A stretch of 51,813 nucleotides of DNA, taken from positions 1-51,813 of the forward strand of contig CAZDTN010000001.1 of NCBI GenBank assembly GCA_964508355.1, written 5' to 3'. Below the pieces are notes generated by a model. That model saw only the letters and a program-made list of their open reading frames with translations. It made no database searches and had not been told where the DNA came from. This DNA comes from an uncultured Sphingobacterium sp. (lineage in GTDB: Bacteria; Bacteroidota; Bacteroidia; Chitinophagales; Chitinophagaceae). Shown one piece after another: positions 9,441 through 12,584 of this stretch; within the stretch, counting starts at the first letter, position 1; each line of letters opens with the position of its first letter. The position numbers were made by a program, and so were the translations under genes.

Positions 9441-9617
9441 ATGAAAACACTTTTTACCAAATTCATTCTAATTTTCGCATCAGTTACCACTTTACTTGGA
9501 ATCTCCAAGCGAAAAGAGGAGCAAACTGCTGAAAATGATGCTATCAGGTTACCTGAATTCCAGCAACAAGACATTGTGGAGGATTATGAGATGGCTGCCT
9601 ACCATAATCAGGCTTGA
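9441..9617 (+). CDS. Small hypothetical protein (58 aa) with N-terminal hydrophobic segment
   Basis: MKTLFTKFILIFASVTTLLG then a basic/acidic tail. A-rich context before the ATG; fills an otherwise unexplained gap. Confidence 0.55.
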   Translation: MKTLFTKFILIFASVTTLLGISKRKEEQTAENDAIRLPEFQQQDIVEDYEMAAYHNQA

Positions 9618-9697
9618 TTTTCCCACCAACTATTAACAGATTAGCTTTTCTTGAAATAATCAATTGCTTTTCCTGGTGAAAAGTAGATTGCAAGCAT

Positions 9698-9705
9698 TAC
9701 TTTTG
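9698..9705 (+). promoter_or_regulatory. -7 element TACTTTTG of carB
   Basis: Exact TAnnTTTG followed by CAC, 56 nt before the carB ATG. Confidence 0.75.
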
Positions 9706-9709
9706 CACT

Positions 9710-9731
9710 CCGGGTACAACCCGGTTTTTTT
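9710..9731 (+). terminator. Intrinsic terminator-like hairpin at start of carB leader
   Basis: CCGGGT-ACA-ACCCGG stem-loop followed directly by T7. Confidence 0.7.
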
Positions 9732-9761
9732 GTGCCCTTTACCGACTAAAAAATATCTTTT

Positions 9762-12584
9762 ATGCCAAAAGACGCTTCAATTGGTTCAGTGTTAATTATC
9801 GGATCAGGACCCATTATCATTGGACAAGCATGTGAATTTGATTATTCAGGCTCTCAGGCTGCCAGAAGCCTGAGGGAGGAAGGTGTAAAAGTAATTTTGA
9901 TTAACTCCAACCCAGCTACCATTATGACTGATCCTATGATGGCTGATAGGGTTTATCTGCTTCCATTAACAGTTGATAGCATAGAAAAAATATTACAAGA
10001 AAATCAAATTGATGCTGTATTACCAACCATGGGAGGTCAAACGGCATTAAACTTGGCCAAAGAAGCAGAAGAACTTGGGATTTGGGAGAGGTACAACGTT
10101 CGATTAATTGGTGTAGATATTAAAGCTATAGATAAAGCAGAGGATAGGGAAAAATTCAGGCAATGGATGATTCAAATGAATATTCCTGTAGCCACAGCCA
10201 AAACAGCCAACTCCTTCTTGGAAGGAAAAGAATTTGCACAGGAAATTGGATTTCCACTTGTAATTCGTCCCTCATTTACTTTAGGGGGAACAGGAGGAGG
10301 CTTTGTTCATAGTAAAGAATATTTAGATGAAGCCTTGAACAGAGGCCTATCCGCCTCTCCCATACATGAAGTTTTGGTTGAAAAAGCAGTTTTAGGCTGG
10401 AAAGAGTTCGAATTGGAATTGCTCCGAGACATGAAAGACAATGTAGCCATTATCTGCACTGTTGAAAACTTCGACCCAATGGGGGTTCATACAGGAGATT
10501 CCATAACTGTTGCACCCGCAATGACACTTAGTGATACCGCATTTCAATTGATGAGGAATACCGCTATTCGCATGATGCGAGAGTTGGGCAATTTTGCTGG
10601 AGGTTGCAATGTTCAGTTTGCACTTAACCCAGAAACTGAGGAAATTATTGCCATCGAAATTAATCCCAGGGTTAGTCGCTCATCCGCATTAGCTTCTAAA
10701 GCGACTGGCTATCCAATCGCAAAAATTGCAGCTAAGTTGGCTTTAGGTTACAGCCTTGATGAATTAAAAAATCAGATAACAAAAACCACTTCGGCATATT
10801 TCGAACCTGCTTTGGACTATGTGATTGTGAAAGTCCCAAGATGGAATTTCGACAAATTCAAGGGAGCAAATGATACCCTGGGCTTACAAATGAAATCAGT
10901 TGGTGAAGTAATGTCTATCGGAAGAAGCTTTACTGAAGCCATACAGAAAGCTTGTCAGAGTTTAGAAAATAATGCTGTTGGATTGGGCTATTATGGTAAG
11001 AGCCTCATGCATGCTGATGAAATCGTTGAATATCTTAAAACACCAAAATGGGATAGGATATTCCGAATTAAGGATGCCTTAATGATGGGCATCAGTGTGA
11101 AAACTATTTGTCAGGCTACTCGCATCGACAGATGGTTTATTTATGAAATCCAAAAGATCGTAGATATTGAAAAAGAAATTGCTAAATATAAATTCGATAG
11201 TCTACCCATTGAGCTGATCAAAAAAGCAAAGCACCACGGTTTCAGCGATGAACAGATTTGCAGAATAATGCAAGATGGCAATGAAGATGCATTGTATGAA
11301 AAAAGAAAAGCTGCAGGTATAACCAGAGTTTATAAAATGGTAGACACTTGTTCAGCTGAATTTGAAGCCAAAACACCTTACTTCTATAGTAGCTTTGAAA
11401 ATCAGGGAACGAATGAAAGTAAGGTTAGCGATAAGAAAAAAATAATTGTATTAGGCTCAGGCCCCAATAGAATTGGGCAAGGTATTGAATTTGATTATTG
11501 TTGCGTACATGGCTTGTTAGCCATCAAAGAATGTGGATTTGAAGCGATTATGGTGAATTGTAATCCAGAAACCGTTTCAACAGATTTTGACATTGCAGAT
11601 AAGCTCTATTTCGAACCTGTTTTCTGGGAACACCTCTGGGAACTGATAGAATATGAAAAACCAGAGGGAGTGATTGTGCAATTAGGCGGACAAACTGCAT
11701 TAAAATTGGCAGAAAGATTGCACAATAAAGGAATCAAGATCATTGGTACTTCATTTGACAGCATGGATATTGCAGAAGATAGAGGAAGATTCAGTGACAT
11801 GCTTAAAAGTTTAGGAATACCCTATCCAGAATATGGAACTGCTTACAATGTAGATGATGCTGTGGAAGTTGCACAAAAAGTTGGTTACCCTGTTCTTGTT
11901 AGACCTTCATATGTATTAGGTGGACAAAGAATGAGGATTGTAATCAACGACGAAGAACTCGAATCAGCTGTAGTCAGTCTGCTTAAACACATTCCAGACA
12001 ATAAAATTCTGATTGATCATTTCTTGGATCGCTGCCAAGAAGCTGAAATTGATGGCATCTTCGATGGAGAAGATTTCCATGTAATGGGTGTGATGGAACA
12101 CATTGAACCAGCTGGTATCCATAGTGGTGACAGTAATGCGGTTTTACCTGCATTTAACCTGACACCAATGGAAGTAACAACAATGGAGTTTATCGCTGAA
12201 AAAATTGCCAGAGCGCTCAACATCAAAGGATTGATTAATATTCAGTTTGCCATAAAAAATGGACAGGTATTTGTAATTGAAGCCAATCCAAGGGCCTCTA
12301 GAACAACACCTTTCATTGCCAAAGCCTATCAAATTCCTTATCTCAACATTGCAACTAAAATAATGATGGGAACACATAAACTGAAGGATTTCCAATTTGA
12401 AAAGAAATTGGATGGCTTTGCCATCAAAGAACCAGTTTTCAGTTTTGAGAAATTCCCAGGTGTGAGCAAGGAATTAGGACCTGAAATGAAGTCAACTGGT
12501 GAAGCCATTCGCTTTGTAAAAGACCTGAGGGACCCCTACTTCAGAACTTTATACAAGGAAAGAAGTATGCACCTGAGCAAGTAG
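9762..12584 (+). CDS. carB: Carbamoyl-phosphate synthase large subunit (short 940-aa form)
   Basis: GSGPIIIGQACEFDYSG, two ATP-grasp halves (RPSFTLGG, RPSYVLGG), ELGPEMKSTGE. Confidence 0.98.
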   Translation: MPKDASIGSVLIIGSGPIIIGQACEFDYSGSQAARSLREEGVKVILINSNPATIMTDPMMADRVYLLPLTVDSIEKILQENQIDAVLPTMGGQTALNLAKEAEELGIWERYNVRLIGVDIKAIDKAEDREKFRQWMIQMNIPVATAKTANSFLEGKEFAQEIGFPLVIRPSFTLGGTGGGFVHSKEYLDEALNRGLSASPIHEVLVEKAVLGWKEFELELLRDMKDNVAIICTVENFDPMGVHTGDSITVAPAMTLSDTAFQLMRNTAIRMMRELGNFAGGCNVQFALNPETEEIIAIEINPRVSRSSALASKATGYPIAKIAAKLALGYSLDELKNQITKTTSAYFEPALDYVIVKVPRWNFDKFKGANDTLGLQMKSVGEVMSIGRSFTEAIQKACQSLENNAVGLGYYGKSLMHADEIVEYLKTPKWDRIFRIKDALMMGISVKTICQATRIDRWFIYEIQKIVDIEKEIAKYKFDSLPIELIKKAKHHGFSDEQICRIMQDGNEDALYEKRKAAGITRVYKMVDTCSAEFEAKTPYFYSSFENQGTNESKVSDKKKIIVLGSGPNRIGQGIEFDYCCVHGLLAIKECGFEAIMVNCNPETVSTDFDIADKLYFEPVFWEHLWELIEYEKPEGVIVQLGGQTALKLAERLHNKGIKIIGTSFDSMDIAEDRGRFSDMLKSLGIPYPEYGTAYNVDDAVEVAQKVGYPVLVRPSYVLGGQRMRIVINDEELESAVVSLLKHIPDNKILIDHFLDRCQEAEIDGIFDGEDFHVMGVMEHIEPAGIHSGDSNAVLPAFNLTPMEVTTMEFIAEKIARALNIKGLINIQFAIKNGQVFVIEANPRASRTTPFIAKAYQIPYLNIATKIMMGTHKLKDFQFEKKLDGFAIKEPVFSFEKFPGVSKELGPEMKSTGEAIRFVKDLRDPYFRTLYKERSMHLSK

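Follow-up and report, generated by a model that had tools for sequence, protein, structure and literature searches.

The promoter of carB in the window (the whole analyzed stretch of 51,813 nt, from an uncultured member of the Chitinophagaceae) has a predicted transcription start that coincides with the opening base of an intrinsic terminator, and the choice of the start base is likely to decide whether carB is transcribed. The terminator is real, conserved and specific to carB. The preferred reading, which is probable on balance, is start-site switching of the pyrC type, driven by CTP and read out as termination.

All parts of the element lie on the forward strand. The −7 box of the primary sigma factor (TAnnTTTG; TACTTTTG, 9698–9705, predicted to span −12 to −5) is followed by the four bases CACT and by a hairpin of 6 bp with a 3-nt loop (9710–9724; CCGGGT at 9710–9715, ACA, and ACCCGG at 9719–9724). 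Next comes a U7 tract plus GU (9725–9733), which together with G9723-G9724 reads GG(U)7GU, and a conserved tail, GTGCCC, occupies 9732–9737. The downstream ORF (9762–12584) encodes CarB (TIGR01369, 1335 bits against a cut-off of 1027). Its ATG at 9762 lies 28 nt beyond the U7-GU tract and 37 nt beyond the 3′ end of the stem, and no second −7 box is found between the box at 9698–9705 and this ATG. Counted from the end of the TAnnTT hexamer, the predicted start window is U6-C7-C8-G9 (9709–9712), comprising three pyrimidines and the first purine, G9712. The earlier note on this DNA had described the box, a 4-nt gap, CCGGGT-ACA-ACCCGG and T7, all of which are present where it placed them. It had also called the hairpin the only clear intrinsic terminator, in agreement with a strict scan (stem of at least five pairs, T6–9) in which the carB hairpin is the sole terminator on the window contig. 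Taken alone, the hairpin is unremarkable, with a fold within chance (z = −1.33) and a loose scan of 5–15 kb yielding 8 terminator-like sites against 7.0 in shuffles, whereas its combination with the box is beyond chance. The box plus 3 nt plus YYCGGG matches once in the window against 0.01 expected, and box plus YYCGGG is found in 1 of 347 putative intergenic promoters of the genome. The genome has 4011 box-like sites; a terminator-like hairpin follows 12 of them, and the carB element is unique among these in having the stem begin four bases after a TTTG box. Assembled RNA contigs (run X1) cover 9443–9629 and 9732–9928, with none across the hairpin, and contigs of this kind cannot show RNA starts or ends.

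Within the genus, the element precedes carB at 23 of 24 loci (the window included), 21 of them with a U-tract, and the −7 box is retained at all 24; carB loci from other families lack the element (0 of 6). For the family, 156 genomes were searched and gave 150 match rows, from which second copies (two), a gene lying at the start of a contig and a divergent paralogue were left out; the 146 loci examined include one further genus member and five genomes added for a matching sequence pattern. The element is present at 32 of these 146 loci at one fixed register, in the form of CCGGG-loop-CCCGG at 15 (class B1) and YCGGGC-loop-GCCCG at 17 (class B2), while CCG without the full element occurs at 5 and other sequences at 26. 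A register-free search of 170 carB leaders gave the same picture, since 55 of 56 CGGG..CCCG hairpins behind a −7 box share one offset. A gene-blind scan of GTDB found at least 120 loci (about 280 estimated), and carB lies downstream in 103 of the 120 listed. The genera among the matches listed are Flavisolibacter and Flaviaesturariibacter for B1, and Flavipsychrobacter, Taibaiella, Edaphocola and Rurimicrobium for B2; cultured species among the B2 carriers are Taibaiella soli, Rurimicrobium arvi and Edaphocola aurantiacus. A full B2 element also stands before an ORF that by eye resembles release factor 3 (L223), which is the sole clean non-carB copy among the matches listed. The 125 non-redundant copies (74 B1 and 51 B2) carry C-G (74) or U-A (47) as the first stem pair, and C-G, U-A, A-U or U-G as the sixth. 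Of the conserved spacing and covarying stem pairs that the earlier note proposed to look for, the register is fixed and these two pairs vary; pairs 8–11, whose invariance was part of the class rule, show no covariation. A looser pattern applied to 401 genomes of the phylum gave 23 matches against 26 in a reversed control; of five perfect intergenic stems stronger than −8 kcal/mol, one proved to be a non-match and the other four (L320, L322, L323 and L324) are carB leaders of the family, and the 18 matches from elsewhere in the phylum include no intergenic stem of this kind. All 11 non-carB matches to the pattern behind the five added genomes are without a U-tract, and five pyrBI loci from other Bacteroidota have no comparable leader. 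The element therefore seems to be confined to the Chitinophagaceae and to carB, rather than general to Bacteroidota or to pyr genes. Four further leaders (L134, L071, L105 and L039) combine CG or CCG starts with other hairpins and are perhaps independent versions; L134, for example, combines C6-C7-G8 with an A/U-rich stem, after which U-rich bases follow.

The TAnnTTTG box has been placed at −12 to −5 (PMC9723704, excerpt), and thus C9710, which is position 7 from the end of the TAnnTT hexamer, is the predicted +1. The spacing of 3–6 nt from box to ATG, by which the start had been located earlier, does recur in five cases in the window, but published TSS maps place +1 better. In E. coli, position 7 is the modal start and positions 6 to 9 are all reachable (PMC5730371, excerpt). 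Position 6, which lay outside the class rule, is T or C at 55 of 55 hairpin-type loci of the genus and family, and positions 6–8 are pyrimidines at all 55, even across the swap of the first pair from C-G to U-A; by contrast, the base in front of the stem is a purine in 86 of 97 ordinary terminators of this genome. In B. thetaiotaomicron, the seven bases after the box of pyrB (BT_0742) are identical to those of the window, and the table of starts gives G9 as the primary start, flagged in mid-log and stationary phase only, and C7 as a secondary start, flagged in early log only (PMC7366714 supplement 3, excerpt). This switch is a detected/not-detected flag from one study with growth phase as the variable. 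These published data show a Bacteroidota polymerase starting at C7 as well as at G9 at another gene that carries the window's seven bases. Six 7-letter forms of the window sequence, compared with the primary starts of B. thetaiotaomicron in the same excerpt, retrieved two promoters, those of pyrB and BT_3113. Starts in this organism are 45% A and 41% G; in a first look-up of the excerpted table, both primary promoters of the form C6-C7-C8-purine9 start at the purine, as do the first 30 of 318 places of the form Y6-Y7-purine8. Since Bacteroides prefers purine starts, also at C6-C7-C8-purine9 promoters, G9 could be a near-constant start. No hairpin is present in the Bacteroides pyrB leader (59 of 119 metagenome loci, with a 38-nt UTR that agrees with the excerpted TSS table), and hence pyrB (e.g., L343) shows a start switch and not an attenuator. 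At five family loci (L123, L130, L156, L166 and L083) only 0–1 nt separate position 7 from the ATG of carB, and in L123 and L130, in which C7 precedes the ATG, start choice could toggle a leaderless mRNA.

On the preferred reading, plentiful CTP would favor a start at C9710, formation of the full stem and release of a 24-nt RNA, and a shortage of CTP would shift the start to G9712, with loss of the two bottom pairs and read-through into carB. The initiating nucleotide itself would complete or omit the base of the terminator, and a regulator protein would be unneeded. We infer that C7 is used at the window's carB promoter, and that CTP or the CTP/GTP ratio sets the start choice, a role that UTP would take in B2, which begins with U. 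The computed stem energies are −8.6, −6.6 and −4.6 kcal/mol for starts at C9710, C9711 and G9712, respectively; as had been proposed, the G9712 start removes two bottom pairs, at a computed cost of 4 kcal/mol. The G9 RNA of B2 still folds a 4-bp stem of −8.3 kcal/mol. Strong termination sites have the form GC(U)7RU with −11 and −10 paired in the stem, and RNA release needs the stem to reach into the hybrid (bioRxiv 10.64898/2026.05.29.728758, excerpt). The element shares the GC-rich stem, U7 at −9 to −3, RU at −2/−1 and G at −11 with such sites, and departs from them at −10, where C is expected and where G is found in 74 of 74 B1 and A in 48 of 51 B2 copies; this departure from the optimal C is expected if position 7 must stay a pyrimidine. 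The pause form GS(N)7RY fits B1 only. U7 is present in 63 of 74 B1 copies, and RU stands in register in 64 of 74 B1 and 40 of 51 B2 copies. C9711 and C9710 pair with −11 and −10 of the terminator, and both are missing from the G9712 RNA. Release is predicted at U9733, giving an RNA of 24 nt (9710–9733) from C9710 instead of the length of about 20 nt proposed earlier, and the terminator would have to work only 24 nt from the start; the shortest natural case found is 31 nt (PMC4448216, excerpt).

The read-through RNA can form a second helix between GGGUAC (9712–9717) and GUGCCC (9732–9737), as the earlier note had pointed out. This pairing exists and is the lowest-energy fold of the whole leader, with a pairing probability of 0.20 for the C7 start and 0.98 for the G9 start, but its 3′ side lies beyond the release point and it forms only after read-through. 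A role as antiterminator is ruled out, because that side is made after the release point has been passed, and a role as a covarying helix is unsupported, as its own energy of −6.06 kcal/mol compares with −6.18 kcal/mol for combinations with other loci (B1). The tail RTRYCY is found in 55 of 74 B1 and 32 of 51 B2 copies and is more conserved than in the genome's ordinary terminators, where 4 of 125 have it; the first two bases of the 3′ side of the helix are the RU signal. The carB leader contains no second terminator. Three loci (L010, L043 and L016) keep the hairpin and the register, but in place of the U-tract they have a sequence that pairs with the RNA from G9 onward in an alternative helix. 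Their modelled fold switches with the start site, and the accessibility of the start codon moves little or in the wrong direction (0.73 to 0.78; 0.65 to 0.54); a translational rewiring of the two-base switch may have arisen at these loci.

A different start occupies the same spot in most of the remaining family loci. RTTT at position 7 (class A) is found at 83 of 146 carB loci (e.g., L034, L041, L058 and L082), with A6 in 72 of 83 and A7 in 80 of 83, followed by TTT. The background is 3 of 347 promoters, as measured in the window genome and not in class A genomes. No family locus carries both RTTT and the hairpin, and the window promoter has no start of a purine plus at least three T residues. 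In E. coli, UTP-driven abortive stuttering occurs at the pyrBI start AATTTG (PMC7039003, excerpt) and at the carAB P1 start GUUUGC (PMC6245113, excerpt), and class A starts often read AATTTG, which is this pyrBI/carAB P1 signature. No report of the RTTT signature was found for Bacteroidota. By their match to these starts, the class A carB promoters are candidates for a UTP-stuttering design. In a quick tree of CarB (90 rows, L001–L090, no bootstrap), class A forms the two deepest family branches, B2 falls into one separate clade, and for B1 6 changes are required, of which strong branches force at least 3. To judge from sequence, two protein-free designs alternate at the carB start position across the family, which suggests that selection may favor nucleotide-sensitive initiation at the carB promoter. 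The CarB frame of many family genomes has only about 550–580 aa, which suggests a split carB in one large class A clade.

An alternative reading holds that the hairpin merely insulates carB by ending upstream transcripts; carB would always start at G9712, its own RNA would never meet the terminator, and pyrimidines 6–8 would serve only to push the start to G9. We regard this as unlikely, even though the purine-9 starts at both comparable Bacteroides promoters in the excerpted table favor it and the hairpin very likely does have an upstream transcript to stop. A small ORF of 58 aa with no known family (9441–9617, forward strand) ends 80 nt before the −7 box. It has 35 homologues, all unnamed or hypothetical, and no Pfam or NCBIfam match; across the family the protein has 58–70 aa, its N-terminus is hydrophobic, and an acidic motif at the C-terminus closes with a tyrosine/phenylalanine-histidine pair; its gene is flanked by carB and by a gene for an M23 peptidase. 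A terminator of its own follows the small ORF at 15 of 19 class A loci against 3 of 30 B1 loci, or 3 of 12 B1 loci within the family (kin are not independent in either comparison), so that 27 of 30 B1 loci lack one. Because B1 ORFs mostly lack a terminator, the window hairpin very likely also ends the 9441–9617 transcript, and would then have two jobs in this genome. Loss of the U-tract is seen in the clade of L010, L043 and L016, whose members have no small ORF, and in L059, which has the ORF with a separate terminator. Insulation is thus a real second job in B1, and loss of the U-tract accompanies loss of that job. In B2, however, the small ORF is found at 0 of 17 loci, and the neighbor is divergent or separately terminated at 14 of the 17 (divergent mreB, by Pfam, at 5, another divergent ORF at 3, a separately terminated gene at 6, unterminated at 2, unclear at 1). 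In B1, too, U7 is retained at L011 and L013, where the neighboring M23 gene is divergent, and at L069 and L168, where the small ORF has its own terminator. As B2 persists at loci with no upstream transcript to be stopped, insulation is not the whole reason for the element; the case in which the hairpin would terminate only the 9441–9617 transcript, named beforehand as one that would sink the proposal, very likely holds for the termination and not for the "only." Insulation also needs no tie to carB, yet carB follows 103 of the 120 matches listed, and it leaves the RTTT start as an alternative at the same spot unexplained.

It is quite improbable that the start ratio answers to another signal, such as growth phase, GTP, ppGpp or supercoiling, which would make the element a fixed throttle, or that an RNA-binding factor acts on a leaky terminator. 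The only switch seen, at B. thetaiotaomicron pyrB, does track growth phase (PMC7366714 supplement 3, excerpt), start choice depends also on topology and the discriminator (PMC5730371, excerpt), and the genome encodes a PyrR-family protein above cut-off. However, the sister RTTT design has a UTP-type signature, an RNA of 24 nt made up wholly of terminator has hardly any space for a protein to bind, and no PyrR attenuator (RF00515) was found in the window, five loci or the genome (72.8% complete), with controls matched in B. subtilis and L. lactis; Rfam likewise gave no match at gathering in the window and one chance match (E 1.9) in the five loci. Slippage as at pyrG, with a start at GGG (9712–9714), extra G residues when the next nucleotide is scarce and a changed leader fold, is highly improbable: GGG stands at 9–11 in all copies and in B2 a run of pyrimidines leads into GGGC, as it does in B. 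subtilis pyrG (PMC7039003, excerpt), but the base after GGG varies in B1 (T in 23, A in 12 and C in 3 of 38), a G9 start already lacks the stem base, so that poly-G would have no default-off state to reverse, and a separate terminator further downstream is lacking.

The two starts of pyrC are labelled C7 and G9. In pyrC and pyrD of E. coli and Salmonella, two extra 5′ C residues at high CTP/GTP complete a hairpin that the G-started RNA cannot form (PMC6524683, excerpt). The carB element resembles them as a protein-free element at a pyrimidine-pathway gene in which two 5′ pyrimidines are predicted to complete a hairpin: pyrimidines occupy the preferred start with G two bases on (U9709, C9710, C9711, G9712; 55 of 55 loci), and the two extra bases deepen the computed 5′ stem from −4.6 to −8.6 kcal/mol. 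It differs in phylum and sigma factor, and in its output. Whereas the pyrC/pyrD hairpin hides the ribosome-binding site, the carB stem ends at 9724, well before the ATG at 9762, the mean accessibility of the B1 start region barely shifts with the start site (0.69 to 0.65), and the hairpin is followed by U7-RU, which predicts termination. In logic, the element is like IMD2, URA2 and URA8 of yeast, where an upstream start includes a termination signal that a downstream start skips at nucleotide shortage (PMC3335523, excerpt). Nucleotide-synthesis genes are concerned in both, but the systems are not homologous, and IMD2 uses the Nrd1 protein pathway and separate starts with the signal between them, in contrast to two bases and an intrinsic RNA hairpin at carB. 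As in B. subtilis pyrG (PMC7039003, excerpt), initiation-phase nucleotide sensing is predicted to be wired to an intrinsic terminator; pyrG, however, has one start and added G residues that pair with a downstream terminator, whereas the start bases of carB are themselves the terminator arm, and the GGGC start and separate terminator with a pyrimidine-rich arm of pyrG are lacking here (GGGU, with base 12 variable). No bacterial case of start-site choice completing an intrinsic terminator was found described in the openly searchable full-text literature or in Rfam.

The CTP-driven switch is thus partly supported, by the register, the tie to carB, the RTTT alternative, pyrimidines 6–8, the C7/G9 starts of pyrB, the neighbors of B2 and B1 and the pyrC/pyrD precedent. 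Against it stand the purine-start bias, the small-ORF job, the hairpin-less pyrB, the −8.3 kcal/mol stem of B2 and the absence of the element at other pyr genes. The start-site attenuator of the earlier note fits in geometry, conservation, gene specificity, the RTTT alternative and the pyrB starts, and has to be amended in that the hairpin is very likely also an insulator and seems confined to carB of the Chitinophagaceae. The element is absent before carA, pyrG, pyrB, the pyrR-like gene, pyrE, pyrF and two pyrC-like genes of the window genome, and pyrD was not found with PF01180 in this genome (72.8% complete). In the same genome (contigs C106 and C61), carA lies at a distance from carB, separated by a terminator from the rpoA-rplQ ribosomal operon that precedes it, and a PyrR-family gene precedes pyrB; in F. 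psychrophilum, carB is transcribed from the rpmH promoter. CarB also feeds arginine synthesis, and for this reason a pure pyrimidine switch would not be the sole need. The fuller picture, namely an attenuator without leader peptide, protein, ligand pocket or antiterminator, repeatedly swapped for UTP stuttering and possibly rewired through a second helix near the start codon in L010, L043 and L016, has in our judgement slightly better than an even chance of being right.

If the switch is real, it would supply the missing combination among bacterial protein-free pyrimidine controls, start-site choice read out as intrinsic termination, and would give bacteria an equivalent of the yeast IMD2 logic within about 25 bases. 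The predicted termination 24 nt from the start would test how soon after promoter escape terminators can act, and the element would be small enough to be assayed directly or put to use as an NTP sensor. Neither standard RNA-seq nor covariation searches would pick up elements of this kind. Bacteroidota do not use Shine-Dalgarno pairing, and carB is the first gene of pyrimidine synthesis; the element would offer a first account of how one family of Bacteroidota could regulate carbamoyl-phosphate synthesis.
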